Of a stretch of DNA of 61,591 nt, positions 18,860-38,271 are shown piece by piece. Under the pieces are notes generated by a model. That model worked only from the letters and a program-made list of their open reading frames with translations, was not told the DNA's origin and made no database searches. The position numbers were made by a program, and so were the translations under genes. This DNA is from an uncultured Geobacteraceae bacterium (lineage in GTDB: Bacteria; Desulfobacterota; Desulfuromonadia; Geobacterales; Pseudopelobacteraceae), in NCBI GenBank assembly GCA_903958085.1, contig CAJBRY010000657.1:1-61591 (forward strand). The letters run 5' to 3'. Positions within the stretch are counted from its first letter, which is position 1, and each line of letters begins with the position of its first letter.

Positions 18860-19879
18860 TCAGGATGGGTTTTGTTCTCTGGAGTCGAGCATAGTTCTAA
18901 CAGTTTCAAAGACCTCATCAACAGTTATTAGTTCCATACATTCCAAGTAATTTGGATTGTCGCACTTATTCGCTTTGCAATGGACGCAGGCAACCTCTGG
19001 ATGACTGATAATAATATGTCCGTTTCCGACTGGTCCAGTACGACGAGGATCAATTGCCCCGAACAGTGCCACTACCGGTGTGCCTACTGCAGTTGCCATA
19101 TGCATTGGCCCGGTATCGCCGCTAACCAGCAGGGAGCACATCGAGAGGACAGCCCCCAACTGCAGCATGGACGTTTTCTCAACCAGGTTAATCGGCTTAT
19201 GATTCATGCCGGCAGAAATCTCTTTTGCCAGATTCCTCTCAAGCCATCCTCCAACGATAACAACCTCTGCGCCAATTTCATCCACCAAACGATTTCCAAG
19301 AGCTGCAAACTGCGCGGTACTCCAACATTTTATCAGATTACTTGCTCCGGGATTAAAAGCAACAATTCTACGTTTATTAACTCCAGAAGCCTCAAACAAC
19401 GCCACTGCAAAACGGCGATGTTCTTCGGTAATGTATAGGTCAAGCCCATCTGCTTCAGAAATAATTCCGAGCGGTTCAACTGTTTTCAGGTGATCAAAAA
19501 CTGCGTGGATGACCGGCTTACGGGTCTTGTTATATACTAAAATTTTGCAGGGGAGTGCAGCAGAAGCAAGGAACCAGGTCTTCAAATTACTGCGCTGGAA
19601 GTTGATGACCAGATTGTATGAATTGCTTCTTATTTGCTGCCAAAGAGCAAGCAGTGCTTTTAATGAGCGGTGTTCATCAAGTCGGTTATAAACAAGTACA
19701 TTTGTTATGTCGGGATGATGACGAAACAGGTCTATCGAGGCTGCATTACCGACCATAATATCGATGCGGGCATTTGGGAAACGCTTCCTAAGTCCCCTGA
19801 TTGTCGGCGTCAAGTGAAGCAGATCGCCCATCGCACCGGGTTTTATGAGGAGTATACTAGAAATTCCAGATTGAACCAT
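18860..19879 (-). CDS. Glycosyltransferase family 9 (heptosyltransferase-like)
   Basis: N-terminal ILLIKPGAMGDLLHLTP and C-terminal GDTGPMHMA motifs are typical of GT9. Confidence 0.75.
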   Translation of the reverse strand: MVQSGISSILLIKPGAMGDLLHLTPTIRGLRKRFPNARIDIMVGNAASIDLFRHHPDITNVLVYNRLDEHRSLKALLALWQQIRSNSYNLVINFQRSNLKTWFLASAALPCKILVYNKTRKPVIHAVFDHLKTVEPLGIISEADGLDLYITEEHRRFAVALFEASGVNKRRIVAFNPGASNLIKCWSTAQFAALGNRLVDEIGAEVVIVGGWLERNLAKEISAGMNHKPINLVEKTSMLQLGAVLSMCSLLVSGDTGPMHMATAVGTPVVALFGAIDPRRTGPVGNGHIIISHPEVACVHCKANKCDNPNYLECMELITVDEVFETVRTMLDSREQNPS

Positions 19880-23698: not shown

Positions 23699-24619
23699 TT
23701 AGCCGTTGAAAAGAGAAAATATCCGACCAAAACGCTTCTTCAAACTACCAGCCATCTTTTCACTGAAAGAGAGCTTCAACGAGCGAAAATATTTCTTGAG
23801 GGCAGAGAGGGCAATCGTATCCTCTTCGACAGCGATTTTAGTTACAATAATTGGCTTATCACTTAGTTCGATATTAAAATGATCAATCGCAGCACAATTT
23901 ACTCCGCTTGCATCATATCCTATATTTTGTACCAATGACTTCCCTGGATACAATGTAAGGCTATTCGTCAAAAATGCTGAAGCATGCCAACGAACCGCCC
24001 ATGAATTGTTTTCGCCACGGGTTTGACGCTTCAGCATTTTGGTATATGAATAAGCACCATCAAGATCAAAAGAGCGCTCAAGATGTTTTTCTTTCAAACT
24101 TTGTAATAGCTGGCTACCATCCGGTTCAAAAAGTTTCCATCCACGCTTCCACGTTGCCCAGCCCCAGCAATCGGCGCCACGAAGAAAAAAAGTTTCCGGT
24201 AATTCTTCTTTAACAGGGTAAACATACCCATGAATGGAAATCACCCGCTCTTCATCGGCATAATAGTTGAGAGCATTATTCATATAGCTGAGAAAATGGG
24301 GAGAGGTTACTAAATCATCTTCAAGAACAATTACACGGCCAAACTCTGCAACAAGATCAGAGACCCCAGAGATGATTGAGCGTGAGAGGCCATAATTTTC
24401 TGACCGCTCAATAATTGTAACTGTGCAAAATCCATCCAAATTTTTAATAAAATCCCGCACATCACAAACACCCTTGTTAGCCTTATCATCTCGAGGAGCA
24501 TCAGAAAAAATAAAAAGGGCACTTTCAGCAGCCAGTTCATTGTTTGCAAGAGCATGAATAGTTTTGCGAGTGTGTTCAGGGCGATTGTAAGTAAATAAAG
24601 CTATGGGAGCTAGTGGCAT
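23699..24619 (-). CDS. GT-A fold glycosyltransferase (GT2-like)
   Basis: IALFTYNRPEHT start and VLEDDL acidic motif. 306 aa. Confidence 0.55.
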   Translation of the reverse strand: MPLAPIALFTYNRPEHTRKTIHALANNELAAESALFIFSDAPRDDKANKGVCDVRDFIKNLDGFCTVTIIERSENYGLSRSIISGVSDLVAEFGRVIVLEDDLVTSPHFLSYMNNALNYYADEERVISIHGYVYPVKEELPETFFLRGADCWGWATWKRGWKLFEPDGSQLLQSLKEKHLERSFDLDGAYSYTKMLKRQTRGENNSWAVRWHASAFLTNSLTLYPGKSLVQNIGYDASGVNCAAIDHFNIELSDKPIIVTKIAVEEDTIALSALKKYFRSLKLSFSEKMAGSLKKRFGRIFSLFNG

Positions 24620-24629
24620 AGGTTTTAGT

Positions 24630-25322
24630 TCATAACGTCAACATAGTTTTAAAAAACATGGTTCTTTGTGTCCTGCATAATAGTTCGTAATTCTGCTGTT
24701 TCATAAAGTTTGCAGTTTCAGAATTCAAAGAGCCCGCAAGATTTGTGCTCTTAATATCTTCTACCAGTACGTAAGTAGGCCGGTACTTAGACCAGTTATT
24801 CGAAATAAGCACTTTATAATCCATGCCCTCAACATCAATGGACATAAAATCAATGTTATTTCCAGGCAAGTACATATCAAGAATCTCGCTTAGTGGCATT
24901 GTTGTCATTTTTATTTCAGAAACAATATTGAAGCTGGTATTAGTATCCCTGTCTTTGCTCAGATCGCTGCTAAACCCGTTCAATGCAGGTTCATCAAACA
25001 TAAAGTATGTTAATTCCTGCTTAGTGTCTGATACCGCAATTTCAAGATTGATGTCATTGGGCCGGTAAAGATTGAAGAGATCCATCGCATGAGGCCTTGC
25101 CTCAATATTAATGCCTTTCCATCCTTTTAGATAAAAATGGTATGTGTTTGAAAACTTCATAGGATGATAAGCTCCTACGTCCACGTATGTCCCGTTTTTC
25201 TTGCCATGCAAAAGTTCTGCAAGCACCATGTCCTCTCCTTCCTGAGAAAAGGAGAGTCTGGAATATTTATTTGTATACTTCGTTTTTTTGAGTTTAAGGA
25301 GAATTTTCTCTGGAAAATTCAT
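24630..25322 (-). CDS. FkbM-family methyltransferase
   Basis: GTYVDVGAYHP and FMSIDVEGMDYKVL blocks are typical of FkbM-type sugar O-methyltransferases. Confidence 0.7.
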   Translation of the reverse strand: MNFPEKILLKLKKTKYTNKYSRLSFSQEGEDMVLAELLHGKKNGTYVDVGAYHPMKFSNTYHFYLKGWKGINIEARPHAMDLFNLYRPNDINLEIAVSDTKQELTYFMFDEPALNGFSSDLSKDRDTNTSFNIVSEIKMTTMPLSEILDMYLPGNNIDFMSIDVEGMDYKVLISNNWSKYRPTYVLVEDIKSTNLAGSLNSETANFMKQQNYELLCRTQRTMFFKTMLTL

Positions 25323-25352: not shown

Positions 25353-27113
25353 TTATTTTGAGTTAGCAAAATTTAGCAATTTACATGCAAGAGCATTCGA
25401 TTTAGCCTCTGCTTCAGGATCAGAATACAATCCACAGAGTAGTCTATGTACCTCGTGTTTTAGTCCAATTGTCTCTTCCTCTTCCGATACGAAAGGGTAT
25501 TGTATTTCAATATCCAGAATGGAATGCAATTGATCATGAATAATTTTATTAACATTAGTGGCTGCCATAAGTCTTTGAGATCTGTTCTTGCAGTCACTCA
25601 TTTGTTGTCGGCATGGTTTTAAAAAAGTTAATAGTTTGTTGAATTTTCTTGAGAAAAAAGGCAGCCTTTGTTGCAAATCATTCTTTGCAAAACTTTCTCC
25701 GATATCCAACAGAGAATAGTCATATTCCATTGCACACCATCTGTAGGTCATTCGAATTCTTTCAGAATCCCATCCCGCTTGCAACGCTTCCTCTAATTTA
25801 AGGAAATATTCTTTTTCAGTAGTTCCAACATAGTTCAGTTCGGACGGGTAGAAAACCAGTTCGCTTGAATATAGCACAACCGGTATTCCCAATAACGCCA
25901 TTTCTTTGCCAGATGATGACCATGCATTCAGAAAAACATCAGTGATGCTCGCCAGATCATAAAGCGAAATATTGTCAGTTGGCCAGTTCACCCGCACATT
26001 CTGGGGTGTTTTGGAGAATACTTCCTGTAAAACCTTGGCATGTTCAGACAGCATGTTTTCCCGTTTGTTGGGAAATTCGCGAGGATGAACCCGGATCAGC
26101 AATGCAAGGTCGTTTCTGTCTGCTACATATTCGATAAGAGCCTTGACCCAGTCCACCTGTTTTGTGAACATCAGGTTTTCAACTCTGGTGAGCACCCCTA
26201 CAGTTTCTGCCGCAAAGCGTTCATCATAACTACTAAGAGTAGCACAAATTACTTTCTGGACGGAATCAATACCAAAAAATGATTTCAAATCAGAGCTGCT
26301 GCCTTTTGCCGCCACAGAATATGCCCAAGCGCTCCTGCCTTTGAAAACCTCAAGGAAATGGTCTGTTACCGCTTTTAAGGCCACGTGAGGGCATGGATGT
26401 TCTTTGAACTCCTTCCATTTTTCCAACATATGCCTGTAAAATTCAACGGTATTATGCTTGGCCAGGATCAAGGTTTGAATCCTCTTCGACAGATTGCCCC
26501 CAGCATGCAGGAAATATTGAGGGACTCCATGCAATCCTGCTAGTCTGCAAAACACTCGGTTTACAGCATATAATGCGTTATAAACAACCAGGCGGTCAGG
26601 GTGTATTTGATTGAACATTCGCTGGGCAATGTGAAAAACTAGAAGAGCGTTTTTTAGGCTAGATTTGTAACGTTCCCATTCAGATGGTGAGAAATCCAGG
26701 TTGCTTTTTTTGGAATCAAGCAATATTTCATAAAGGGCAATTTTACCAACCTCAACTGAGTTAAGCGTCAGTTCCAAACAATTTTCAGGCGTAACCGATG
26801 TAATTATTTCTTCTATAGAGTTCAAATCAGCCGCCTGATATTTATCGGACAAATCAAAACCGGCAAAGCCAAATTGTTCGCAGATAATCTCTTTGTTCTT
26901 TTTACATAAACGGCAAATGCGTTGTTTTTTTTCTCTGTCTGCAGCAAAAGGTATGTCATGCGCACTCATGGAAATACAGTAATCATCCAACAAGCCGCCA
27001 CACCCGATATAGACGATTTCATGTCCCTGCTGCATCAATGCTTCAGCTATTAACGCTTCAGGAAAAGCGTGACCCCAAATGGCTGAGTTTGGTGCAAAAA
27101 ATAATATTTTCAT
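25353..27113 (-). CDS. Uncharacterised 586-aa GT-B-like protein with a KpsS/KpsC-type HP motif; candidate ulosonic/nonulosonic-acid transferase
   Basis: MKILFFAPNS... GT-B-like N-terminus. LIRVHPRE (HP motif) is followed by NAWSSSGKEMALLGIPVV, resembling the capsule_synth C-terminal domain. Directly downstream of pseI. Confidence 0.4.
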   Translation of the reverse strand: MKILFFAPNSAIWGHAFPEALIAEALMQQGHEIVYIGCGGLLDDYCISMSAHDIPFAADREKKQRICRLCKKNKEIICEQFGFAGFDLSDKYQAADLNSIEEIITSVTPENCLELTLNSVEVGKIALYEILLDSKKSNLDFSPSEWERYKSSLKNALLVFHIAQRMFNQIHPDRLVVYNALYAVNRVFCRLAGLHGVPQYFLHAGGNLSKRIQTLILAKHNTVEFYRHMLEKWKEFKEHPCPHVALKAVTDHFLEVFKGRSAWAYSVAAKGSSSDLKSFFGIDSVQKVICATLSSYDERFAAETVGVLTRVENLMFTKQVDWVKALIEYVADRNDLALLIRVHPREFPNKRENMLSEHAKVLQEVFSKTPQNVRVNWPTDNISLYDLASITDVFLNAWSSSGKEMALLGIPVVLYSSELVFYPSELNYVGTTEKEYFLKLEEALQAGWDSERIRMTYRWCAMEYDYSLLDIGESFAKNDLQQRLPFFSRKFNKLLTFLKPCRQQMSDCKNRSQRLMAATNVNKIIHDQLHSILDIEIQYPFVSEEEETIGLKHEVHRLLCGLYSDPEAEAKSNALACKLLNFANSK

Positions 27114-27156: not shown

Positions 27157-28206
27157 TCATGAAATAAGATTCCAACTAAGCGGCGTACCCTTAGACACGT
27201 CTTTTGAAACTTTCTTGCCGACTACAATGTCAAAATATTTTGGCGGCAAACCCAACCCAGGGCGTATTGCACGAAGGTTAGCCGTAGAAAAGAATTCACC
27301 AGCCCGCATATGTTCCGCCACATATAGCGAACGACGATATTGAAGGGACTTTTTTTCTGTTTCTGTCGGCCCATAACTGACACATCCCAACGCCTGCCAT
27401 GCCCGCTTTGTTTCAACTACCAGGCTCTGCATCTCGTCGGGTTCGAGGGAGAATACTGAATCAACACCACCGTCAGCCCTGTTAAGGGTAAAATGCTTTT
27501 CAATGACCGTTGCGCCCAGAGCCACTGCCGTGACAGCCGCCCCCACGCCCATGGTGTGGTCTGACAGTCCGACTCCAACATTAAAGAGCTCATGCAGGTG
27601 CGGTATGGTACGCAAATTGGAAGATTCTGGGGTGGCGGGGTAGCTGCTGGTGCATTTGAGCAGAACTATCTCGCGGCACCCTGCCTCCCGGGCTGCCCTT
27701 ACCGCCTCGTCCAGTTCGGCAACTGTGGCCATGCCGGTGGAGATGATCATCGGCTTGCCCGTTCTAGCTACTTTGCGCAGCAGCGGCAGATCGATATTCT
27801 CGAATGAGGCGATCTTGTAGCAGGGGACCTGCAATGATTCGAGAAAATCCACTGAGGTCGCGTCAAAGGGGGTACTGAAAAAGATAATTCCCAGCTCCTG
27901 GCACCGCTCCATAATAGGTTTGTGCCATTCCCACGGCGTATGCGCCTCCTGATAAAGCTCGTAAAGGCTTCTGCCGGTCCATAGATTTCCGGGATCACTG
28001 ACGAAAAACTCCCGTTCCCGCAGATCAAGCGTCATGGTGTCAGCAGTATAGGTCTGGATCTTCATGGCATCGACGCCGCACCTGGCCGCTGCTTCCACAA
28101 TCTCCAGTGCCCTTTCCAGAGACTGATTGTGATTGCCGGACATCTCCGCAATGATAAATGGCGGCTCAGCAGGGCCGATCAGCCTGCCGGCGATGTTAAT
28201 GGTCAT
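27157..28206 (-). CDS. pseI: Pseudaminic acid synthase (NeuB family)
   Basis: FIIAEMSGNHNQSLERALEIVEAAARCGVDAMKIQTY and a C-terminal SAF domain. Start set at ATG 28206 (MTINIAG). Confidence 0.85.
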   Translation of the reverse strand: MTINIAGRLIGPAEPPFIIAEMSGNHNQSLERALEIVEAAARCGVDAMKIQTYTADTMTLDLREREFFVSDPGNLWTGRSLYELYQEAHTPWEWHKPIMERCQELGIIFFSTPFDATSVDFLESLQVPCYKIASFENIDLPLLRKVARTGKPMIISTGMATVAELDEAVRAAREAGCREIVLLKCTSSYPATPESSNLRTIPHLHELFNVGVGLSDHTMGVGAAVTAVALGATVIEKHFTLNRADGGVDSVFSLEPDEMQSLVVETKRAWQALGCVSYGPTETEKKSLQYRRSLYVAEHMRAGEFFSTANLRAIRPGLGLPPKYFDIVVGKKVSKDVSKGTPLSWNLIS

Positions 28207-28229
28207 ATGGCCTCCTTGCCGGAAATGGT

Positions 28230-28979
28230 TCACGTCGTTGCAGCATGCTGGACCATCTCGTCCCACGATAACCAGTGCTCTGTGCCGCTGGCGATAAGTT
28301 CCAGCGTTTTCTCCGGACCTATATTCACTAGCGCGTCAATTATCGAAAGATAGGGAATAAATTCCTGGGGAGAGCCGATCTGCGCATATGTTTTCGGAAC
28401 ATAATTCTGAAAGCGGACCTCAATATCCTGAACAGGAAAGACAGCGTCCTCAAGCATATAGGGAAAAGAGCCGCGGGCGCAGACATAGGTTTTTGCCCCG
28501 CTCCAGCGCAACAGGTCGAGAACCCGCTGTGAGCGCTCTGTCTGCAAGGGGCATTGCGAACTATAGCAGAATTCCCGTTTGATCCCCAACAAACGGCAGG
28601 CCAAAAGAATAAAGTCTGTATTCTGGCTAGCCAGCGATGCGGCTTGCGCGAAAAACCACTGGTTGAGGTCAGGAGCTAATTCCGCGAAAAACGGAGCCTT
28701 GCTGTAATTCTGCTCCAGCCTTTTCCATAGTTTGGTGCGCCACGGGGTCGATTCATTGATTTCAGTTTGATTAAGAGCTGCCTTGAATGAATTTGACTTG
28801 CGAACCGGCACGCTGTACCAGTCGACCTGGCCGCGGTTGACAAAAAGGCGATTTCGCTGGTGGTAGCTTTGCACTGAAAACTGAAAGTCATCGAGAACAA
28901 TAAAACGATCCGACCGGTAGATCAGTTCAAAAAAACCCTGCCAGGGCAAAAAGGCCGGCTGCATCATGGCGACGACCAT
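28230..28979 (-). CDS. WbqC-family protein (function unknown)
   Basis: The MQPAFLPWQGFFELI start is the hallmark of the WbqC-like family found in O-antigen loci. Confidence 0.7.
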   Translation of the reverse strand: MVVAMMQPAFLPWQGFFELIYRSDRFIVLDDFQFSVQSYHQRNRLFVNRGQVDWYSVPVRKSNSFKAALNQTEINESTPWRTKLWKRLEQNYSKAPFFAELAPDLNQWFFAQAASLASQNTDFILLACRLLGIKREFCYSSQCPLQTERSQRVLDLLRWSGAKTYVCARGSFPYMLEDAVFPVQDIEVRFQNYVPKTYAQIGSPQEFIPYLSIIDALVNIGPEKTLELIASGTEHWLSWDEMVQHAATT

Positions 28980-28982
28980 ATT

Positions 28983-29480
28983 CTATGACCTCGTCAATTC
29001 CATGCCGATAATGTTGCAGCCACGGCCGGCCCAGACGCCGGCATCGCCGACAAGCGGCACTTCGACAAAGCCGATGTTTTGGTACATGGCATAAGCAGCC
29101 TTGTTAAAATCGGCAACATGCAGGTACATTTTATGGAAATGCATGTTTTCCATCCCCTCCTGCACCAGCAGTTTCGTCGCGCGAGTCCCGACCCCTTTGC
29201 CGCGAGTCGCCGGAGATCCCATATAAATCCACAATTCGCCTTCACTGCCGGCAATGATATTTTTGATGCCACAGTTGCCGACATGCTCGTTCTCGCAATA
29301 AATAGCGTAAACCTTTTGCGAAGAATCCGACAATAGCCTGGTGCAGTAGGTGACATGTCCTTCCCAGTCAGGTTCTCCCCGCATGAGAAACATGCGCCGC
29401 AGTTCAGGGTCGCAGATCCAGGCAAAGGTTTGCTGAAAATGGTCCTGCGAGAAGGCTACTAGTTGGATGTCATAATCCAT
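28983..29480 (-). CDS. GNAT N-acetyltransferase (PseH candidate)
   Basis: 165 aa. The RGKGVG acetyl-CoA loop and the FAWICDPELRRMF N-terminus are PseH-like. Confidence 0.6.
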   Translation of the reverse strand: MDYDIQLVAFSQDHFQQTFAWICDPELRRMFLMRGEPDWEGHVTYCTRLLSDSSQKVYAIYCENEHVGNCGIKNIIAGSEGELWIYMGSPATRGKGVGTRATKLLVQEGMENMHFHKMYLHVADFNKAAYAMYQNIGFVEVPLVGDAGVWAGRGCNIIGMELTRS

Positions 29481-29488
29481 GATACCGC

Positions 29489-30556
29489 CTAGATGTCATA
29501 GTCTGTGCATGTCGTACAGAATTCAACCTCGGCCATGCGCCCTTCGCTGTTGAGCCGGAGGATCTCATGTCTGGCGCTGCCGTTCCAGATCTCATGCAGC
29601 GTCTGTTTCTGGACGTCACCCAGGAACAGTTCGCCGTTATAGGAGGCATCGCACAAGGTGACATGCCCATTCGAACAAATAAAGCAATCATTGCGCGAAA
29701 CCCGCAGACATGTGGTCAGCGGCTTTCTTTCCCGCTGGCCAAGCCCGAAGCTGTTGTTGGGCAGGTTTACATACTCAAGCATATTGATGCTGACAATATC
29801 CGCATACCGGTAATGTTCGGCAATAAATGCATCAACCTCGTGTTGGGTGGTTTCCTGCTCGATCATCTGGCAATGGAGAAAGGGTTTCCTTGGGAGATTT
29901 TCCTGGCCTTTCAGTTTGTAAAAGGTGTCCAGGTTATCTCGGACGGCTTTGAAATCGCCTTCAGGGATAACCGTGTTGTAGGTGGCAGCGGTAACCGCAT
30001 GCATGGAAAAATTTATGTAATCGATATTTGAATCAAGCACGCAGTGAATATTGTCTTCCGTGAAATACTGGCCGTTGGTGCTCATCCAGATGACGCCGAG
30101 ATTTTTCTTCTGGCTGATGTGCCGGATGTTTTCTCTGAACTCTGGATGCAGCAGGGATTCGCCAAGATGGTAGAGCCATATGCCCTCAATGCCGTAGGAA
30201 TCGATCTCGTCAATAACTTTCCGGTAAAGTGAACCTTCCATATCCATGCGTGGCCGCTTCAGGTTGTTTTGCGGACACATCCGGCATAGATAATTGCACT
30301 TGCTGGTCATTTCGAACAAGATCCTTCTGGGGAAGGAGATGCGTTCAAGGTACCGTGAAGATGGGGGCATTCTCCTGATCGGTACGACAACCACATTGCG
30401 TGAGGCGAGTTCCTGTGCATAAGCAAGATTGTCAGGATCTTCAACCAGCTTCAACTCCTGGGTCATCTGCACCGGCTTCATTTTCCTCAGTTCGCTGAAC
30501 TTGGGGATCGCCGGTGCTTCTATCTGGTAATATCGTGATAAATCGAAAAATTCCAT
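29489..30556 (-). CDS. Radical SAM enzyme with C-terminal SPASM/twitch-like Cys-rich domain
   Basis: CNYLCRMC (Cx3Cx2C). C-terminal CLRVSRNDCFICSNGHVTLC...FCTTCTDYD. Confidence 0.8.
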   Translation of the reverse strand: MEFFDLSRYYQIEAPAIPKFSELRKMKPVQMTQELKLVEDPDNLAYAQELASRNVVVVPIRRMPPSSRYLERISFPRRILFEMTSKCNYLCRMCPQNNLKRPRMDMEGSLYRKVIDEIDSYGIEGIWLYHLGESLLHPEFRENIRHISQKKNLGVIWMSTNGQYFTEDNIHCVLDSNIDYINFSMHAVTAATYNTVIPEGDFKAVRDNLDTFYKLKGQENLPRKPFLHCQMIEQETTQHEVDAFIAEHYRYADIVSINMLEYVNLPNNSFGLGQRERKPLTTCLRVSRNDCFICSNGHVTLCDASYNGELFLGDVQKQTLHEIWNGSARHEILRLNSEGRMAEVEFCTTCTDYDI

Positions 30557-30585
30557 TTAGTAACTCCTTCTAAATCTCTTGGAGA

Positions 30586-31473
30586 TCAGGCCGAACGGGT
30601 TGTTGCATAGACAATCACCTGCCGGCCAAGATCCAGTTCCGCCAACGCCTGGTAAAACTTGACCAGTTTCTCTTTTTTGCCATGCTTGCGCATCAGGTAT
30701 TCAAATTTCACCCGTTTGTTATGGCACGCTTTGCCCAACTCCCCATTGCCGACATACACATCAGCCATGAGCAAGAACATCTCCAGCGGGAAGGAGGCTT
30801 CACTATGAAATACAGAATAGCCGCAATCAGCAAGCAGTTTTTTGACAGAAGTCGCGCTGAAATAATTGATATGGTTTGGCGGGCAGACCCACCACTGGTT
30901 AAGGCCATACTCCTTGTCTGCAATGGCCTGAAAATCATTGAATTCATTGGGTACGTCTATGATCAGCAACCCGTCCGGTTTCAGTAGTTTGGCCTTGATA
31001 TTCTGCAATGTCGCGGCTGGATCCCGCAGATGCTCCAGCACATTGATCAAGGTAACCACATCAAAGCGTTTGTCTCCAACGCAATCAAAATCCTCGATAC
31101 CGGCATTGTGCACATCCAGACCCTTGGAGCGGGCGTACTCAACCGCTTCCGGTGCAGGCTCAAGGCCGCTCACATCGAAGCCGCGCTCACGGAAATAGAG
31201 CAAGGCCTGGGCAAAGCCGAAACCGATATCGAAAAGCGACAGTGACGAATGCCCGAAATGTTCAACGCATTTGCGGTAGATGCTTTCCCATCTGTCCGTA
31301 AAGTAATCTTCTTCCTCTTCCTGCACCTTCAGGGAAGAATCATTGAAATTCTTGTAGTCGGATGAATAGAACTCCTGCTTGTAGAATTCCTCGACCTCCT
31401 GTTGGGTAGGTACCGGGTCGGCCCTGAGGAATCCATGTTCCGGATCACTGATTATCTTGAATTTATCTGCCAT
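30586..31473 (-). CDS. Class I SAM-dependent methyltransferase
   Basis: LFDIGFGFAQ motif I, VVTLINVLEHL and LKPDGLLIIDVPN. Confidence 0.75.
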   Translation of the reverse strand: MADKFKIISDPEHGFLRADPVPTQQEVEEFYKQEFYSSDYKNFNDSSLKVQEEEEDYFTDRWESIYRKCVEHFGHSSLSLFDIGFGFAQALLYFRERGFDVSGLEPAPEAVEYARSKGLDVHNAGIEDFDCVGDKRFDVVTLINVLEHLRDPAATLQNIKAKLLKPDGLLIIDVPNEFNDFQAIADKEYGLNQWWVCPPNHINYFSATSVKKLLADCGYSVFHSEASFPLEMFLLMADVYVGNGELGKACHNKRVKFEYLMRKHGKKEKLVKFYQALAELDLGRQVIVYATTRSA

Positions 31474-31475
31474 CG

Positions 31476-32549
31476 TTATCCCCTTGGTGATTTATGGATA
31501 TTATCAGCGCAGCGTGCGACGCCGTTGCCGTCAACCAGCATCATTGCCTTGACGGATTGCTGTTTTAGCTGCTCCGGCCCCACCATGCATTCTTCCAGGG
31601 CCCGGGCAATCTGCTCAGACGTTATGGCATCTGCTTCACCCAGATAGGTCAGCGCGCCAATGCGGTGCAGGTCTCTGGTCGCTGCTATCTGGCTCGGCGA
31701 AGTTGTCATGACCAGGGAGGGGAGGCCAAGGCAGGAGCGCTCCCAGGTGGTTGTGCCTGGCGCCCCCACATACAGGTCACTGGCCGCTATCAGTTCCGCC
31801 ATGTTGTTGACCTGAATATGTAGGTCAACTTTCTCCATGTTCGAGGCCTCTGTTTTCAGCTTCTCCTGATGGGGATTATGCAAGCCCACGACAACGTCGA
31901 AAAAGAGTTCTGGATGTTTCAAATGGCCTATGGCCTGCAACACTTTGACGGTGGCATTACCGAGGTCGCTGCCGCCGAAGAAGACCAGGACGCGTCTGAC
32001 ACAGCCGTCCCGATGCCGCAGTTTTTTTCGCGCTGCGGCAAATTCATCACGCAAAAGCGCATAGGCAGGGCCTAACAGCATCTGGCATGTCGAAGGCACC
32101 AAACCAGGATAACGGTTGTCGCTGTCAGTGTAATAATTCTGGTCCAGCAGCACATCACAGTCATGGCGGCGATCGGCAAGATCGTCAATAACGAATATGT
32201 TTCGGGCAACAGGCCGCAGCGCTGATTCCCATGCATAATCCAGACGGTAATGGTCAAGCACAAGCCAGTCGATACCACCGGATTCATGCAGGTTCGTCAG
32301 ACACTGTCCGGCATCATTCTGCCAGTCTGCTTCTGGCTCCCCTACAAGACGGATGCGCACCACCGGATAACCCTTGTTTTCAACAAGGTTAATCAGGTTG
32401 CCGGGAACATCCCTGCAGAGAAAGCTTACCTGCGCCCCCCGACTTTTTAGCTCCTCGGCCAGTGTCAGGCAGCGCATGACATGCCCGCTGCCTATGCTCA
32501 GTGAGGCGTCAGCGCGGAAGCCAACGCGTATGCCTTTCAGGCGGTTCAC
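31476..32549 (-). CDS. pseG: UDP-2,4-diacetamido-2,4,6-trideoxy-beta-L-altropyranose hydrolase
   Basis: FRADASLSIGSGHVMRCLTLAEEL is the typical PseG N-terminus. GT-B-like, 357 aa. Confidence 0.8.
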   Translation of the reverse strand: MNRLKGIRVGFRADASLSIGSGHVMRCLTLAEELKSRGAQVSFLCRDVPGNLINLVENKGYPVVRIRLVGEPEADWQNDAGQCLTNLHESGGIDWLVLDHYRLDYAWESALRPVARNIFVIDDLADRRHDCDVLLDQNYYTDSDNRYPGLVPSTCQMLLGPAYALLRDEFAAARKKLRHRDGCVRRVLVFFGGSDLGNATVKVLQAIGHLKHPELFFDVVVGLHNPHQEKLKTEASNMEKVDLHIQVNNMAELIAASDLYVGAPGTTTWERSCLGLPSLVMTTSPSQIAATRDLHRIGALTYLGEADAITSEQIARALEECMVGPEQLKQQSVKAMMLVDGNGVARCADNIHKSPRG

Positions 32550-33835
32550 CGTACCTTGAAGAGAGGTTCTAGCGGCTTGCAGCGCAGATAATCCGCCATC
32601 TTCCTGTTGTCAACAGCGTCTTTCAGAATGGGCAGAACCTCATTGTACGCGTTGAGCAGCTTGGTGACGTCGTCGTCGGAATGGGCATAGTTCATGTTGT
32701 GCGAGCCCAGTGTCATAATGCCTCGGGCAAGCATCTCCTGCATGAACAAGGTCTTCAGCTCCCATACCGAATAAGGGTCGCAATCTTTCAGGATCATAAA
32801 CGACCAGACTGGGAGGCCTGCCAGATAGGCAAAATGACCGGCGTAATGCTGCTCGAGCAGTCCCGCCAAACCATCCAGCACTTTTTTCCCCTGTTTGCCG
32901 ATGGAGGCGATGACAGGTTCCCGCTGCAACTTGGTCATGGTTGCCAGCGATGCGGCCAGTGAGAGGGTTTCACCGCCAAAGGTGAAGGAGAAGAACACCT
33001 CTTCCATCAAGCGCATGATCTCCGCCTTGCCGGCCACTGCAGACAACGGATAGCCATTGGCAAGCCCCTTGCCGAAGGTGGCAAGATCGGGGGTGACTCC
33101 AAAATATTCCTGAGCGCCGCCGTTGGCGAAGCGGAAGCCTGTCACTGTTTCGTCAAAGATAAGTACGGCGCCGTTGCGGTGCGCTACATCCTGCACCTTG
33201 GAGAGGAAACCGTCGGCCGGTTCGGTAATGTTCATCGGCTCTAGGATAACCGCGGCGATCTGATCCCGATATTCCTTGAAAAGAGCGATGAGCGAATCAA
33301 TGTCATTATAGGTAAAGGTATGAGTTAGATCGCTGGTAGCCTTAGGGACGCCAAGATTGCGCGCGGTGGTGCCGATAAACCAGTCCTGCCAGCCATGATA
33401 GCCGCAGGCGGCCACCCGGTCACGGCCGGTGTAGGCCCGCGCAATCCTGACCGCACCGGCGGTGGCATCGGAACCATTCTTGCCGAAACGGACCTTCTCG
33501 GCACAGGGCACCATTTCCACTATCTTCTCAGCCACTTGTACCTCCAGGGTGTGCGGCAGCGAGAAGATTACCCCCTCCTCAAGCTGGGCCTTTACGGCGG
33601 CATTGACGTCAGGATCGCAATAGCCAAGGGTGATGGCAGCCAGCGAGTTGATAAAATCAATATATTCATTGCCGTCAATATCCCATACATGGCTTCCTTT
33701 GCCGCGGGCTATGAAATATGGCGATACCCCATACGGAAACTGCACCTTGCTTTTGCTGAAGGTTTGAGAACCGAGCGGGATCGTCTGCAGAGCCCGTTCC
33801 AGCATTTCTTCAGAGTTGTGATAGCGTTGCGACAT
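32546..33835 (-). CDS. Class III aminotransferase (glutamate-1-semialdehyde aminomutase-like)
   Basis: GKNGSDATAGAVRIAR and IFDETVTGFR..., with PLP Lys context ATFGKGLANG. 429 aa. Confidence 0.8.
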   Translation of the reverse strand: MSQRYHNSEEMLERALQTIPLGSQTFSKSKVQFPYGVSPYFIARGKGSHVWDIDGNEYIDFINSLAAITLGYCDPDVNAAVKAQLEEGVIFSLPHTLEVQVAEKIVEMVPCAEKVRFGKNGSDATAGAVRIARAYTGRDRVAACGYHGWQDWFIGTTARNLGVPKATSDLTHTFTYNDIDSLIALFKEYRDQIAAVILEPMNITEPADGFLSKVQDVAHRNGAVLIFDETVTGFRFANGGAQEYFGVTPDLATFGKGLANGYPLSAVAGKAEIMRLMEEVFFSFTFGGETLSLAASLATMTKLQREPVIASIGKQGKKVLDGLAGLLEQHYAGHFAYLAGLPVWSFMILKDCDPYSVWELKTLFMQEMLARGIMTLGSHNMNYAHSDDDVTKLLNAYNEVLPILKDAVDNRKMADYLRCKPLEPLFKVR

Positions 33836-33839
33836 GGCT

Positions 33840-34616
33840 TTATCCTTTGTGTGTAAGATTTGGCGGGATGCAATCCATCAATAATGATTTTTGCAGACCC
33901 TCATTACGGCTGAAATGGGTATTGAATGTTATGAAGTCCGGATGCTCCTTTAACCAGCAGAGGATATCGGCGGTTGTGAAGCATGGGTTGGCCGGATACA
34001 ACTCCTCGTAGATCCTGGTGATGAGCTCGAAATCAGCAGGCTCGTCAACCGTCCAGCGCAGTTCAGACAGATCATGTTCGCCTTTAAAGCTTCCCAGTTT
34101 GAAGAGGTCTGGCTGCTGGTGGATGAAAAGGGTCACGTGCTCCCGCTGGGAAGTGAGCTTTGCCTCAAGCCAGGCTTGTCCCAGACACTTGAAGCGAAAG
34201 ATCTCCACATCGAGGCCATCGGGGAAAGTCGGCTCAAGGGCGCTGCTGGTATAATCAAAGTTGCCGGCCAGATGATGTGCCACTACCTGGTCAATCAAGT
34301 CCGGGTCGGCCAGCGGACAGTCTCCGGTCAGGCGTACCACATGCTCGGGCTGATAGGACTTTGCTGCTTGGTAGAATCGCTCAAGCACATCATTGAGGCT
34401 ACCCCGAAAACAGGGAATACCCTTATCAAGACAAACCGACTCAATGGGGGTGTCACTTGCGTCACTGCTGGTAGCAACCAGCAGCTTGTCCAGGGATGTC
34501 GCGCGTTTCACTCTTTCGAGCTGCCGGAACAGCATCGGTTCACCAAGAATATTTTTCAATACCTTGCCCGGTAATCGCGATGAAGAAACCCGGGCCTGCA
34601 GGATGGCCAGGATCAT
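33840..34616 (-). CDS. SpsF-type cytidylyltransferase-family protein (possible CMP-sugar synthetase)
   Basis: MILAILQARVSSSRLPGKVLK start at ATG 34616, in ATGA overlap with the upstream GNAT stop. The 38-aa track extension is discarded. Confidence 0.7.
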   Translation of the reverse strand: MILAILQARVSSSRLPGKVLKNILGEPMLFRQLERVKRATSLDKLLVATSSDASDTPIESVCLDKGIPCFRGSLNDVLERFYQAAKSYQPEHVVRLTGDCPLADPDLIDQVVAHHLAGNFDYTSSALEPTFPDGLDVEIFRFKCLGQAWLEAKLTSQREHVTLFIHQQPDLFKLGSFKGEHDLSELRWTVDEPADFELITRIYEELYPANPCFTTADILCWLKEHPDFITFNTHFSRNEGLQKSLLMDCIPPNLTHKG

Positions 34617-35170
34617 TTTTTCACTCCTTGCCAATAGTCCTGGGCAGTGATGCCAAGAAGGACGGCATCGTACAGCACACCATTGCTCATGCCATGGGAG
34701 CGCAGGAGCCCCTCCTGCAGATATCCACATTTTTCAAAAGCTTTCATGCTTCCCAAATTAGTAGCATGGCAACCGGCTTTGATTTTGTTGAGATTCAACA
34801 TGTGAAAAGCATAGTCGGTGACCACCTGAATCGCTTCAGTGGCCAGGCCTTTTCCCCAGTAATTCTTGTCGCCGATAAAGAGGCTGATGTCAGCGTTGCG
34901 GTGGTGCCAGTTAATGGGGCCAAGCTTGATATTGCCGATATGCAGATCGTTTTCTTTTAAACAGATTGCCATAAAAGGTTCATTTTCCTTGGCATCCATC
35001 CGCTTCACAAAGTCAGCGATATTGTCGAGCGAACGGGGCACAAAACGCGTTTCCAGGAACTGGTAGATCTCCGGGTCATTGAGCCAGGAATAATAACGCT
35101 CGTTGACATCGCTCAGACGTACTTCGCGCAGGTAGATTCGTTCGCTGGAAAGATAATAGACATTGTTCAT
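34613..35170 (-). CDS. GNAT N-acetyltransferase (RimJ/RimL-like)
   Basis: YWGKGLATEA acetyl-CoA loop. 185 aa. Confidence 0.7.
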   Translation of the reverse strand: MNNVYYLSSERIYLREVRLSDVNERYYSWLNDPEIYQFLETRFVPRSLDNIADFVKRMDAKENEPFMAICLKENDLHIGNIKLGPINWHHRNADISLFIGDKNYWGKGLATEAIQVVTDYAFHMLNLNKIKAGCHATNLGSMKAFEKCGYLQEGLLRSHGMSNGVLYDAVLLGITAQDYWQGVKK

Positions 35171-35201
35171 ATCAATCTCCTGATATTTGTTAGTTTAACT
35201 G

Positions 35202-36089
35202 TTATTGCAACTTCCAGAGGGCCGGATTCACAAGCCCTTCATCAGCGCAGGCAAAGCGCTCATAACTGATGGTGTTGGCCGGAAGCGCAGTTGCTGCAGC
35301 AACAATTTGCTGCAGTTCACTGCCGGAACAGACGCCGACAATAACGTGGTCGATCTCCACGATGTCCATGACAAATTTCAATGTGGCCTGAAGCTGGGAA
35401 AACCCTTTGTTCCGGGCTTCACGGGAGAATGACTCCAGAATGCCAACGTAAGGAGCGAAGTATGGATTAAGGGCTGCTGCATCCATCAAAAGCAGGCCCT
35501 GTAAAAAGGCCGAACGGCTGTGGATTTCAACTCCCGCCTGCTTGAGCCGCTTCAGTTGGCCGCCGTTTAGTAACCGCTGGTCAAGAACATTGACCGGCAC
35601 CTGCACCAGATCCGGGGTGAAACGATGAAGTATTGCATCAAGCTGCTGCCCGGTGTAGGCGGAGAATCCCCATTTGCTGATCAGCCCCTGTTGTTTGAGT
35701 GCACAGACTCTCTCAACCAGCACCGATGACTCATCCGTCAGCAAATCATCGGCATGATGGAACATCAGGCCATGAATCGCCTCTTTTTGCAGGGACTTGA
35801 GGGAATGGAGAAATGTCTGCTCCAACCGGTCTGCCTCGGCTTTCAAATCGCCGGTAACATCAAAGCGCGGAGTTTTCGTCACAATGGCAAAATCATGCCC
35901 CAGGGAGGCAAGAGCCTGTCCGAGCACGGTTTCACTGGTGCCATACATGGAGGCGGTGTCGATGACGCTGATTCCGATGCGGGCAGCCAGATCCAGGATG
36001 TGCAGCACTTCATCAGCCGGTGTTCTGCCGGCTGTATTTGATATGCCGTAGTCCAGGCCGAACTGGACGGTGCCGAGGCCGAGTTTCAC
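35202..36089 (-). CDS. Aldo/keto reductase
   Basis: LGLGTVQFGLDYG...IDTASMYGTSE is a typical AKR N-terminus. 4-nt overlap with the pseC stop. Confidence 0.8.
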   Translation of the reverse strand: MKLGLGTVQFGLDYGISNTAGRTPADEVLHILDLAARIGISVIDTASMYGTSETVLGQALASLGHDFAIVTKTPRFDVTGDLKAEADRLEQTFLHSLKSLQKEAIHGLMFHHADDLLTDESSVLVERVCALKQQGLISKWGFSAYTGQQLDAILHRFTPDLVQVPVNVLDQRLLNGGQLKRLKQAGVEIHSRSAFLQGLLLMDAAALNPYFAPYVGILESFSREARNKGFSQLQATLKFVMDIVEIDHVIVGVCSGSELQQIVAAATALPANTISYERFACADEGLVNPALWKLQ

Positions 36090-37249
36090 TGCAGCACCCT
36101 TAACAGGGTATCAATCACATAATCTTGTTGCTCTTCAGTCAGGCCAAAATAGAGCGGCAGGCTGATGGCCTCCTGGTAATATTGCTCAGCCTGTGGGTAA
36201 TCCCCAGCCCTGAAGCCAAGCTGCTGGTAGTACGGATGGGTATGCACCGGGATATAGTGCAGGTTGACGCCTATATTTGCCTGGCGCAATTCTTCAAAAA
36301 CCTGGCGTCTGGACTTGATAATCAGTTCAAGATTGAGCCGGATGACGTAGAGGTGGTAGGCGGAATAACAGTCCGGATGCTGGTAGGGCAGGGTGAGCGG
36401 CAAAGGCGCCAAGAACCGGTCATATCGTTTTGCCAGCAGATGGCGACGCGTGACGAATTCATCCAGACGTGACATCTGGCTCACTCCGAGGATGGCCTGC
36501 ATATCGGTCATGCGGTAGTTGAAGCCCAGCGCAATCTGCTGATAATACCAGGGGCCGTCGCTTTCTCCGGCCATCAGCGCCGGGTCGCGGGTAATGCCGT
36601 GTGAACGAAGACGAACCAGCGTATCATATAGTTCTTTTTTGTTGGTCAGCACCATTCCGCCTTCACCAGTAGTGATAATCTTCACGGGATGAAAACTGAA
36701 AATAGTCATGTCAGAGAAGGCGCAGGCGCCGATTTTATGGTTGCCATAACGGCCGCCAATGGCGTGTGAGGCATCTTCAATTACCGTTACATTGTATTTG
36801 GCGGCGCATGCGGCGATTTCCGGCATCCTGCAGGACTGGCCAGCAAAATGAACCGGCACTACCACATCCGGGAGTTTGCCGGATGCTGCGGCTATTTGCA
36901 GTTTTCGGGAAAATTCAATGGTGCTCAGGTTGTATGTTTTTGGATCGATGTCAACAAAGTCAACCTCGGCACCGCAGTAAAGTCCGCAATTGGCCGAGGC
37001 AACAAAGGTGTTCGGCGATGTCCAGAGACGCTTGCCTGGGGCAAGTCCGGCTGCCAAGCAGGCGATGTGCAGGGCCGAAGTCGCGCTGTTTACCGCCACT
37101 GCATACTTGGCGCCGCAGTAATCAGCAACAGTGCTCTCGAACAATTCTATAGCGGGGCCTTGAGTCAGCCAATCGGAAGCCAAAACATCAACCACTGCCT
37201 GAATGTCTTTCTCAGAAATATTCTGCCGACCATAGGGGATAGCTTTCAT
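36086..37249 (-). CDS. pseC: UDP-4-amino-4,6-dideoxy-N-acetyl-beta-L-altrosamine transaminase
   Basis: MKAIPYGRQNISEKDI start is typical of PseC. DegT-family body with FSFHPVKIITTGEGG (PLP Lys). Confidence 0.85.
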   Translation of the reverse strand: MKAIPYGRQNISEKDIQAVVDVLASDWLTQGPAIELFESTVADYCGAKYAVAVNSATSALHIACLAAGLAPGKRLWTSPNTFVASANCGLYCGAEVDFVDIDPKTYNLSTIEFSRKLQIAAASGKLPDVVVPVHFAGQSCRMPEIAACAAKYNVTVIEDASHAIGGRYGNHKIGACAFSDMTIFSFHPVKIITTGEGGMVLTNKKELYDTLVRLRSHGITRDPALMAGESDGPWYYQQIALGFNYRMTDMQAILGVSQMSRLDEFVTRRHLLAKRYDRFLAPLPLTLPYQHPDCYSAYHLYVIRLNLELIIKSRRQVFEELRQANIGVNLHYIPVHTHPYYQQLGFRAGDYPQAEQYYQEAISLPLYFGLTEEQQDYVIDTLLRVLQ

Positions 37250-37254
37250 CTTGC

Positions 37255-38271
37255 TTAAGCCTCTACGTAAAAGTCTGGGTCAACATGCTCAGAAATCAAT
37301 GTCCTAATTTGCTCCACACTTAACCATTCGGAATTGCTGCCGCTGTTGTAGTTAAATCCCTGAGTGCAGCGTTTGCCTTTAAAAGCCTCGATAAAATCGT
37401 CAATATTCCAGAGCGGAATTGAGGGAAGAATGACGAAGTACTTCTCAAATTCAAGCGTATTAATGGAGTCTGTTGTGGTAATCATCTCTTCATGGAGTTT
37501 TTCACCAGGGCGAATACCAACGATGTTCTTTTGACATTTTGGTCCAATTGCATCAGCAATGTCGGTAATTCGATAGCTTGGAATTTTAGGGACAAAAATT
37601 TCGCCGCCCCACATGTTTTCAAGTGCGTATAGTACGAGCTCAACACCATCTTGAAGAGTTATATTAAATCTGGTCATCTGCTCGTCGGTAATTGGCAATA
37701 GACCTTCCTGTCGTTTTTCAAGGAAGAAAGGAATTACACTACCCCTACTTCCCATGACATTTCCATATCTCACGACTGAAAATTTGATGTCGCGCTTCCC
37801 TTTATAATTATTTGCAGCAACAAAAAGCTTGTCCGAACAGAGTTTTGTAGCCCCATACAGGTTTATTGGTGCTGCTGCCTTATCCGTGCTCAAGGCAACC
37901 ACCTTTTTTATCCCTTTGTCAATTGCGGACTCAATGACATTTTGAGCACCAATAATGTTGGTTTTTATGGCCTCAAACGGATTATATTCACATGCTGGAA
38001 CTTGCTTCAACGCAGCAGCATGAATAACGATGTCAATCCCCTCCAATGCCCGCATAAGACGCTCTTTGTCACGGACATCCCCAATGAAAAACCGGACTTT
38101 ACGTTCAGAACCTTCTGGCATGCATTGCGCCATTTCATATTGCTTCAACTCATCACGCGAATATACAACTAATCTCTCAATTTCAGGATACGTCTCCAGT
38201 ATAGTCGTAACAAACTTTTTCCCGAATGATCCGGTCCCGCCAGTAATAAGAATAGATTTATAATTTAACAT
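37255..38271 (-). CDS. pseB: UDP-N-acetylglucosamine 4,6-dehydratase (inverting)
   Basis: ILITGGTGSFGKKF, YGATK (YxxxK), 338 aa, immediately upstream of pseC. Confidence 0.88.
   Translation of the reverse strand: MLNYKSILITGGTGSFGKKFVTTILETYPEIERLVVYSRDELKQYEMAQCMPEGSERKVRFFIGDVRDKERLMRALEGIDIVIHAAALKQVPACEYNPFEAIKTNIIGAQNVIESAIDKGIKKVVALSTDKAAAPINLYGATKLCSDKLFVAANNYKGKRDIKFSVVRYGNVMGSRGSVIPFFLEKRQEGLLPITDEQMTRFNITLQDGVELVLYALENMWGGEIFVPKIPSYRITDIADAIGPKCQKNIVGIRPGEKLHEEMITTTDSINTLEFEKYFVILPSIPLWNIDDFIEAFKGKRCTQGFNYNSGSNSEWLSVEQIRTLISEHVDPDFYVEA

Follow-up and report, generated by a model that had tools for sequence, protein, structure and literature searches.

A multi-phylum family of GT-B proteins linked to nonulosonic acid genes: a probable CMP-pseudaminic acid transferase in a lipid A-core gene cluster of a Geobacteraceae bacterium

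Results

The X586 gene and protein

The window analyzed in the present study is a 61,591-nucleotide stretch of DNA from an uncultured Geobacteraceae bacterium (assembly GCA_903958085.1, contig CAJBRY010000657.1, positions 1 to 61,591). We focused on a gene in this window that follows pseI, the gene for pseudaminic acid synthase, and encodes a protein of 586 amino acids (aa), designated X586. A first-pass annotation, made from the sequence alone, had proposed that X586 is a glycosyltransferase (GT) for a nonulosonic acid (NulO) such as pseudaminic acid (Pse), activated with cytidine monophosphate (CMP).

25353..27113, minus strand: X586, an ATG-started open reading frame of 586 codons (586 aa, 67 kDa, isoelectric point 6.3)

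This open reading frame and the two motifs quoted in the first-pass annotation were present as described. The N-terminus of X586 reads MKILFFAPNSAIWGHAFPEAL, residues 336-352 are LALLIRVHPREFPNKRE, and residues 396-413 are NAWSSSGKEMALLGIPVV. Alignments with homologues begin at residue 1. The gene is located downstream of pseI, as had been noted, at a distance of 43 nt, and 30 nt upstream of a gene for an FkbM-type methyltransferase. No transmembrane segment was predicted in X586 (the maximum Kyte-Doolittle 19-residue mean was 1.45), and a DxD motif was absent anywhere in the sequence. X586 is predicted to be a soluble or peripheral GT-B glycosyltransferase.

Fold and domains

AlphaFold2 was run on full-length X586 with an alignment of 47 sequences, and the model contained two Rossmann domains (predicted local distance difference test [pLDDT] 92.5, predicted template modeling score 0.91). 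The conserved motifs, which include a His-Pro (HP) motif, and an insertion with four cysteines (Cys4) were mapped onto these domains.

26319..27113, minus strand: N-terminal Rossmann domain (N-domain), residues 1 to ~265 (AlphaFold2 secondary structure and conservation)
26904..27002, minus strand: Cys4 insertion, C38-x7-C46-x20-C67-x2-C70, inside the N-domain (conservation)
25716..26267, minus strand: C-terminal Rossmann domain (C-domain), residues 283-466 (AlphaFold2, Foldseek, and the match to BFO_1060 described below)
26220..26234, minus strand: S294-S295-Y-D297-E298 loop after the first strand of the C-domain (conservation)
26079..26093, minus strand: HP motif R341-V-H343-P344-R345 after the second strand of the C-domain (conservation)
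25902..25922, minus strand: W398-S399-S-S-G402-K-E404 loop at the N-terminus of a helix, of the phosphate/ribose-binding type (conservation and alignment)
25356..25679, minus strand: helical C-terminal extension, residues 479-586 (AlphaFold2 and conservation)

In Foldseek searches against the PDB, full-length X586 gave 246 matches at an expectation value (E) of <=1e-3. The top matches were all GT-B proteins, which, together with the two Rossmann domains, confirmed the fold suspected earlier. The start of the N-domain, MKILFFAP..W-x-H-A-F-P-E, is GT1/GT28-like, and weak profile matches of this domain were to GT1/MGT, Glyco_trans_4_4, and GT28-N. We presume that the N-domain is the acceptor side, and, as judged from conservation, the Cys4 insertion inside it is probably a structural zinc site.

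The C-domain is presumed to be the nucleotide-sugar donor side. When it was modeled separately (residues 280-475, pLDDT 88.9), TagF (E 6e-6) and TarL with cytidine diphosphate (CDP)-ribitol were the top Foldseek matches, followed by uridine diphosphate N-acetylglucosamine (UDP-GlcNAc) 2-epimerases. KpsC structures were found in this list at ranks 19, 30, 45, and 49 (E 1.6e-4 to 1.5e-3), and KpsC was not within the top 50 matches of full-length X586. Sialyltransferases of the families GT38, GT52, and GT80 were not among the top 50 matches of either model. As far as the models indicate, the donor-side domain is closest to cytidine-nucleotide-binding enzymes. The C-terminal extension has no recognizable domain, yet it is conserved within the family.

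These matches also raise the question of whether X586 is a GT. It may instead be a 2-epimerase or a PseG/NeuC-like hydrolase that acts on a nucleotide sugar, or a TagF-like CDP-polyol phosphotransferase, given that UDP-GlcNAc 2-epimerases were on top of the full-length Foldseek list (E 3.5e-9), and TagF and TarL on top of the C-domain list. Neither Epimerase_2 (PF02350) nor TIGR00236 matched X586, and Epimerase_2 was weakly matched by 3 of 47 family members. Both 2-epimerases and GT1 macrolide-type transferases share the overall GT-B fold with X586, and its ..FFAP..W-x-H-x-F-P.. sequence resembles the G-H-x-x-P start of GT1 (the N-terminal beta1-loop-helix); however, the template modeling (TM) scores are low, the sequence matches are marginal, and the C-domain motifs of X586 are of the HP type. 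TagF and TarL use cytidine-nucleotide donors (CDP-glycerol and CDP-ribitol) and have a GT-B-like architecture. However, they transfer a polyol phosphate, not a sugar, and have no significant sequence match to X586; TagD/TarIJ-type genes for the synthesis of CDP-glycerol or CDP-ribitol are absent from the window, and Glyphos_transf (PF04464) was matched by only 1 of 47 members (E 0.044). Moreover, the window and many other loci contain PseG and a full Pse pathway, and a legionaminic acid (Leg) cluster of Azospirillum has its own NeuC in addition to an X586-like gene. We rejected X586 as a replacement for PseG or NeuC because these proteins co-occur with it, and consider any role other than glycosyl transfer to be very unlikely.

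Size and conservation of the family

X586 had been regarded as an orphan. However, a single word-indexed search yielded at least 922 homologues, and the best 120 of these were nearly all full-length (~580 aa) with 45-63% identity. An exhaustive profile search of 1.84 billion proteins, as cluster representatives at 50% identity, detected 3,560 family representatives at E<=1e-3 and 1,016 at E<=1e-30, mostly of ~580 aa. The best 150 matches in this search were all full-length family members and thus gave no bridge to known families. The homologues are almost all annotated as "hypothetical protein" and a few as "capsule biosynthesis protein" (NCBI). Pfam gave no consistent family match for X586 or the 47 family members, and literature searches found no published papers characterizing the family.

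Conservation was examined in 80 homologues with 33-55% identity. Residues K135, Y182, H252, S266, S295, D297, E298, W322, R341, H343, P344, R345, N372, N376, S399, G402, G409, P411, and W459 were invariant (80/80). X586 has three HP dipeptides (at 171, 239, and 343), and only H343-P344 is invariant. The HP motif and the stretch downstream of it are thus meaningful beyond chance. E404 was retained in 78 of the 80 homologues and E547 of the C-terminal extension in 79; D507 and R511 are also conserved in the family. The invariant D297-E298-R stands in place of the D/E-D/E-G motif of sialyltransferases, and, on the basis of this conservation, D297-E298 is a candidate catalytic or donor-binding acidic pair. 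Cysteines C38, C46, C67, and C70 were each retained in 76 homologues, which fits a single structural metal site, and all four were invariant in the smaller set (47/47). In contrast, H15 of the GT1-like N-terminal motif was retained in only 71, which makes it a doubtful catalytic base.

Relationships to known families

Neither X586 nor the family profile had a significant match among PDB sequences (best E 0.54 to 1.5). Of 18,950 NCBIfam models, one gave a consistent match: NF046086, "BFO_1060 family glycosyltransferase", positions 200-320 of 365 of which aligned with X586 residues 315-446 (E 4.3e-6, 26.1 bits). This model was matched by 37 of 47 family members at E<=1 (best E 1.4e-9). BFO_1060 (strain 92A2) is the orthologue of Tanf_01245/TFUB4_00887 of Tannerella forsythia, which has been described as TagB-like with HP motifs and is implicated by knockouts in the transfer of Pse/Leg derivatives to the T. 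forsythia O-glycan (PMC5420450). Three members of the X586 family also touched TIGR04396, "surface carbohydrate biosynthesis protein"; a TIGR04396 protein adjoining neuB on an Azospirillum plasmid matches BFO_1060 at E 8.6e-18. When the X586 family was compared with eight TIGR04396 proteins at the profile-profile level (hhalign), the alignment was weak and placed RVHPRE on RPHPFE and WSSaGKEMsLLGlP on SSSTAIEAxLAGVP, in register. We regard this alignment as suggestive rather than conclusive.

BFO_1060 and the TIGR04396 proteins resemble X586 in having a GT-B C-domain in which the HP motif is followed ~55 residues on by an S-S-x-x-x-E nucleotide-binding loop, and their genes also adjoin NulO biosynthesis genes. 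X586 differs from BFO_1060 in being ~140 aa longer, in its GT1-like N-domain with the Cys4 insertion, in its helical C-terminal extension, and in having neither DxD nor D/E-D/E-G; the likeness is confined to the C-domain. Two remote plasmid-encoded proteins, from Azospirillum thermophilum (25% identity, hhalign probability 99.8%) and Legionella adelaidensis (28%, 97.9%), are by profile comparison clearly homologous to X586 over the GT-B core. Both of these remote homologues (25-28% identity) retain the Cys pattern, the HP motif (as RTHP), and the S-x-G-x-E loop.

The first-pass annotation had likened the motifs of X586 to those of KpsS and KpsC. X586 may accordingly be a retaining ulosonic acid transferase of the KpsS/KpsC type (Capsule_synth; GT99/GT107/GT118) that acts through an Asp nucleophile and a covalent sugar-enzyme adduct. 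KpsS, KpsC, WbbB, and KpsS1 (GT107, GT99, and GT118) share with X586 the HP motif and a similar nucleotide-binding stretch, which in X586 aligns with GTAGLEA of a Capsule_synth protein (pairwise E 0.015). KpsC is among the structural matches of the C-domain, a few homologues bear a capsule-related name, and KpsS1, of the Capsule_synth lineage (GT118), is a known Pse transferase that uses CMP-Pse (PMC12887879). However, Capsule_synth (PF05159) was matched by none of the 47 family members, and the NCBIfam KpsS model by one, at E 0.2 only. QxxxD, which is the invariant nucleophile motif downstream of the HP motif in Capsule_synth/GT99-type enzymes (PMC10148158), was not found as a conserved motif in the X586 family. 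The order of motifs also differs: the HP motif of KpsC precedes the nucleophile Asp, whereas the invariant acidic pair D297/E298 of X586 precedes the HP motif. Furthermore, the N-domain of GT99/GT107 is described as reduced and displaced, whereas that of X586 is a full canonical, GT1-like Rossmann domain of ~260 residues. We consider membership in the KpsS/KpsC type to be highly improbable; the nearest relatives of X586 are instead the TagF/TarL-type C-domain and the BFO_1060/TIGR04396 families.

HP-motif sialyltransferases (GT38, GT52, and GT80), the motifs of which were reportedly set out by Freiberger in 2007, resemble X586 in the GT-B fold and the HP motif and, as predicted for X586, in metal independence and a CMP-ulosonic acid donor. 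They differ in the D/E-D/E-G motif, which X586 lacks, and no sequence similarity to X586 was detected.

Genomic context of the family

A scan of GTDB species genomes gave 80 loci (L001-L080), 58 of which had full flanks. They originated from Beta-, Gamma-, and Alphaproteobacteria, Nitrospira, cyanobacteria, Kofleriaceae, Bdellovibrionota, Omnitrophota, Bacteroidota, and Helicobacteraceae, and from metagenome-assembled genomes (MAGs) labeled as Pacebacteria, Nomurabacteria, and Saccharibacteria; a few cultured strains were included (Herbaspirillum, Afipia birgiae, and Methylomonas rivi). The following genes, among them genes for a short-chain dehydrogenase/reductase (SDR) and an ATP-binding cassette (ABC) exporter, were counted within 10 kb of the X586 homologue.

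NeuB-family synthase: 53/80 loci, 43/58 loci with full flanks
NeuB-family or cytidylyltransferase-like gene: 50/58 loci with full flanks
PseI-type gene ending directly upstream of the X586 homologue, same strand: 19 loci
DegT aminotransferase: 51/80
GT-A-like "GT306": 49/80
PhyH-like Fe(II)/2-oxoglutarate dioxygenase: 47/80, directly downstream in 32 (e.g., L020:11739-12797 and L001:11809-12837)
MsbA/PglK-like ABC exporter with fused transmembrane and nucleotide-binding domains: 46/80 (e.g., L082:14975-16732 and L083:10021-11802)
FkbM methyltransferase: 40/80
SDR: 39/80
core-lipopolysaccharide (LPS) genes (GT9, WaaA, LpxK): 2/80

The X586 family is strongly linked to NulO biosynthesis genes, and this holds across phyla. 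Since X586-family genes are located beside NulO genes in many phyla, the protein is probably the missing enzyme that attaches NulO to the cell surface. The PhyH-like dioxygenase possibly hydroxylates the sugar or the glycan. We found no description of this conserved X586-containing gene module in searchable papers.

The remote homologues are in a similar setting. A complete Leg cluster (LegB, LegC, NeuC, NeuB, CMP synthetase, HisH/HisF-like proteins, and an amidotransferase) is present on the A. thermophilum plasmid NZ_CP029359.1 at 121.8-145 kb (L084/L086), and the remote homologue in it is annotated as "hypothetical". On the L. adelaidensis plasmid, the remote homologue is beside a gene for acylneuraminate cytidylyltransferase (CMP-NulO synthetase). 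A recurrent tailoring pair was also observed: in Herbaspirillum sp. CF444, which has no NeuB within 10 kb, Formyl_trans_N and Polysacc_deac_1 genes follow the X586 homologue (L045:11757-13519), and this pair is also found after NeuB in a locus of Nitrospira (L082:2306-3915).

The gene counts also bear on the donor. X586 may be a GT-B enzyme of the same glycan pathway that uses an ordinary nucleoside diphosphate (NDP)-sugar, with NulO being added by a different, unrecognized enzyme; the co-conserved SDR and DegT may, for instance, supply an amino-deoxy sugar as the donor. Linkage to DegT (51/80) and SDR (39/80) is as frequent as that to NeuB (53/80), X586 is similar in its N-terminus and full-length fold to NDP-sugar GT-B enzymes, including those of the GT1 macrolide type, and some loci have no nearby NeuB. 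However, the C-domain is without GT1-type motifs, it has the invariant HP-R loop of CMP/CDP-using enzymes, and it is structurally nearest to TagF/TarL, and the sole consistent family match is BFO_1060. A PseI-type gene is directly upstream in 19 loci, and the window contains no other plausible CMP-NulO transferase. We regard an NDP-sugar donor as unlikely.

Surrounding genes in the window

X586 lies in a one-strand run of genes bounded by lpxD (53468-54520) and a GT9 heptosyltransferase gene (18860-19879). The order in the first half is lpxD, lpxA, lpxB, msbA, lpxL, a PAP2 gene, waaA, lpxK, GT9, three GT2, and GT4; the second half continues with methyltransferases, the pse block, X586, FkbM, GT306, a methyltransferase, a DxD protein, SDR, DegT, and a second GT9.

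49252-51000: MsbA of the lipid A cluster, the sole such exporter in the window
44125-45213: the other GT9
39241-39614, minus strand: two gene remnants between pseB and GT2
38458-39218, minus strand: nucleotidyltransferase (NTP_transf_2/Polbeta, 112 aa) and NTase_sub_bind (HEPN-like, 149 aa) pair between pseB and GT2
28230..38271, minus strand: the rest of the pse block (profile matches)
27157..28206, minus strand: pseI, pseudaminic acid synthase, 349 aa from ATG (TIGR03586, E 3e-152)
24630-25322, minus strand: FkbM methyltransferase, co-conserved, downstream of X586
23699-24619, minus strand: GT-A-like "GT306", co-conserved
22911-23645, minus strand: methyltransferase, co-conserved
21977-22918, minus strand: DxD protein "U313", co-conserved
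21004-21990, minus strand: SDR, co-conserved
19883-21004, minus strand: DegT aminotransferase, co-conserved
18860..19879, minus strand: GT9 heptosyltransferase, which closes the cluster

The two GT9, WaaA, LpxK, and the lpx genes indicate a lipid A/core context. Genes for Wzx, Wzy, WaaL, or an initiating phosphoglycosyl transferase are absent from the window, as are PhyH-like and Capsule_synth genes, and the X586 module here has no exporter of its own. The remaining GTs in the window are of the GT2/GT-A, GT4, and GT9 types together with the canonical 3-deoxy-D-manno-octulosonate (Kdo) transferase WaaA. No HP-motif or CMP-NulO-type GT was found besides X586, and the first-pass annotation was correct in stating that no other GT in the region is suited to a CMP-NulO donor.

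The genes at 28230..38271 encode WbqC, a PseH-like GNAT, a radical SAM/SPASM protein, a methyltransferase, PseG, a GSA-type aminotransferase, a cytidylyltransferase (PseF role), GNAT, an aldo-keto reductase, PseC, and PseB. All steps of the Pse pathway are covered without X586 (PseB, PseC, PseH-like GNAT, PseG, PseI, and the cytidylyltransferase); therefore, no biosynthetic role is needed for X586. Extra tailoring genes are present at 28230-36089 (WbqC-like, radical SAM/SPASM, class I methyltransferase, GSA-type class III aminotransferase, KidO-like aldo-keto reductase, and the second GNAT). The product of the block is probably an unusual (modified) Pse derivative, supplied as CMP-Pse. The longest pseI open reading frame has a GTG start (369 aa, to 28266) and an overlap with the WbqC gene; in public gene calls, pseI starts at the internal ATG.

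The GC contents were 40.8% for the X586 gene (GC at third codon positions [GC3] 0.39), 53.5% for pseI (GC3 0.58), and 49-56% for the pseC-pseI block at 27157-37249 (GC3 0.58-0.67). The contrast described in the first-pass annotation is thus real, but smaller than quoted. GC3 was 0.39-0.50 in the housekeeping and lipid A genes of the window and 0.40-0.48 in pseB, the GT2/GT4/GT9 genes, lpxK, and waaA. Since the GC3 of X586 is within the range of the lpx, waaA, GT, and housekeeping genes, X586 appears to be native, at the low edge, and the pseC-pseI block is the outlier. We rejected X586 as a foreign AT-rich insertion. In its composition, the pseC-pseI block resembles a cassette that was acquired horizontally or replaced, lying between the native pseB and X586.

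The pair at 38458-39218 looks, by its domains, like a MntA/HepT-type toxin-antitoxin module. One remnant at 39241-39614 is an 80-aa open reading frame with just the first ~27 residues of an SDR epimerase/dehydratase, and the other is an 85-aa open reading frame aligning to the C-terminal PseI residues 282-351 (27% identity, pairwise E 4e-4); both may be left over from a previous sugar cassette. Together, the toxin-antitoxin-like pair and the SDR and PseI remnants between pseB and GT2 suggest past cassette replacement. LysS of the window is 93% identical to that of a Desulfuromonadaceae MAG and 85-86% identical to those of Trichlorobacter ammonificans and Pelobacter propionicus, which places the source organism in Desulfuromonadales by protein identity.

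Discussion

The kind of enzyme considered here, a GT-B HP-motif transferase for a CMP-ulosonic acid, is already known; however, the X586 family is uncharacterized and absent from Pfam. Its distinctive additions are the Cys4 insertion, the helical tail, and the GT1-like acceptor domain. We propose that X586 is probably a CMP-Pse-dependent transferase acting on the core of lipooligosaccharide (LOS). The earlier guess of a NulO transferase was reasonable and is now better founded, with the donor and activity still inferred.

According to this proposal, X586 would be a cytoplasmic, metal-independent GT-B enzyme of a large multi-phylum family. Its C-domain would bind CMP-NulO, here (probably modified) CMP-Pse provided by the pseB-pseI genes; the binding elements would be the invariant R-x-H-P-R loop together with the S-S-x-G-x-E loop. 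Judging from HP-motif sialyl, Kdo, and TagF-type enzymes, contacts to the CMP phosphate would be made by H343 and R345, and the S399-G402-E404 loop would bind the phosphate and ribose. Catalysis or carboxylate binding may involve D297/E298 or else H252, K135, and Y182. The N-domain, stiffened by the Cys4 (probably zinc) insertion, would present the acceptor. The acceptor here would most likely be the lipid A-core (LOS) oligosaccharide, which the neighboring GT9, GT2, GT4, GT306, and U313 enzymes would build at the inner membrane face before MsbA flips it. The location of X586 inside a single-strand lipid A/core supercluster without Wzx, Wzy, WaaL, or an initiating transferase makes such an acceptor plausible. 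We regard the open reading frame, the fold, the invariance of the motifs, the gene linkage, and a remote similarity to NulO-transferase-like families as shown, and the donor, the acceptor, zinc binding, the stereochemistry, and the catalytic roles of H343, D297, and E298 as inferred.

Several points weigh against this assignment. The likeness of the X586 family to characterized NulO transferases, as far as profiles detect it, is remote. The NF046086 cutoff is 200 bits over the whole model, of which the 26.1 bits of X586 fall short, and the hhalign comparison with TIGR04396 gave E 0.0066 with a probability of just 5.8%. The full-length Foldseek list begins with UDP-GlcNAc 2-epimerases and GT1 macrolide-type transferases, and its TM-scores are low (0.2-0.37; 0.24-0.37 for the 2-epimerases). 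The sialyltransferase motif D/E-D/E-G ([DE][DE]G) is absent anywhere in X586. Bacillus subtilis SpsB sets a precedent that also favors an ordinary NDP-sugar donor: despite its TagB domain and HP motifs, it is dispensable for Leg transfer and is not the Leg transferase (PMC7439481).

The genomic context also contains contrary evidence. Fifteen of the 58 full-flank loci, including those of Herbaspirillum isolates, have no NeuB within 10 kb. The A. thermophilum Leg cluster holds a TIGR04396 protein in addition to the remote X586 homologue and, thus, a second HP-type candidate. A Capsule_synth gene (PF05159, 32.6 bits) is directly upstream of the X586 homologue in L078 (8508-10001), L055 (8481-10001), and L073 (8514-10001), which makes two candidate ulosonic acid transferases in each of these clusters. 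The nearest neighbors within the X586 family shared the NeuB-synthase type (PseI-like or other) in 41 of 52 cases versus 27.4 +/- 4.3 after shuffling, a comparison in which shared ancestry is uncontrolled; the mean identity was 0.40-0.41 within synthase types versus 0.39 between types, and the family showed no deep split by NulO synthase type. Moreover, three MAGs labeled as members of the candidate phyla radiation (CPR) have pse genes and an X586 homologue: L075 (Saccharibacteria), L070 (Pacebacteria), and L078 (Nomurabacteria). The gene order in L075 is nearly that of the window (PseI-X586-GT306-methyltransferase-U313-SDR-DegT). CPR bacteria lack LPS, and the module in these MAGs thus argues against a universal LPS acceptor. 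In these cases, the acceptor would be something other than LPS, unless the contigs were transferred or misbinned.

More tentatively, X586 may found a CMP-NulO transferase family at the level of CAZy, with a GT1-like acceptor domain carrying a Cys4 zinc insertion, an R-x-H-P-R/S-S-x-G-x-E donor domain, and a helical C-terminal extension. It may be the signature enzyme of a multi-phylum module (NulO synthesis, X586, the PhyH-like dioxygenase, the MsbA/PglK-like ABC exporter, FkbM, and the GT-A partner) that builds a NulO-capped, methylated glycolipid or glycan. We speculate that this module was grafted into the lipid A-core pathway here and lost its dioxygenase and dedicated exporter.

Many bacteria carry pseudaminic and legionaminic acids on their LPS, capsules, flagella, and S-layers. 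To our knowledge, very few transferases that attach them have been identified, namely, Maf, KpsS1/GT118, and the T. forsythia enzymes. Knowledge of Pse/Leg transferases has been called scarce (PMC5420450). The X586 family numbers thousands of proteins, is not covered by a Pfam model, and is nearly always annotated as "hypothetical". If X586 is an ordinary NDP-sugar GT, the present finding amounts to no more than a hypothetical but conserved GT encoded in an LPS cluster. If it is a true NulO transferase family, the attachment step would be filled in for a large share of the orphan NulO clusters, in environmental lineages including Nitrospira, Kofleriaceae, cyanobacteria, Burkholderiales, Desulfuromonadales, and candidate phyla. 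The family would then also provide a new enzyme scaffold for the chemoenzymatic synthesis of Pse/Leg glycosides, and what Pse and Leg are attached to outside pathogens would become testable.

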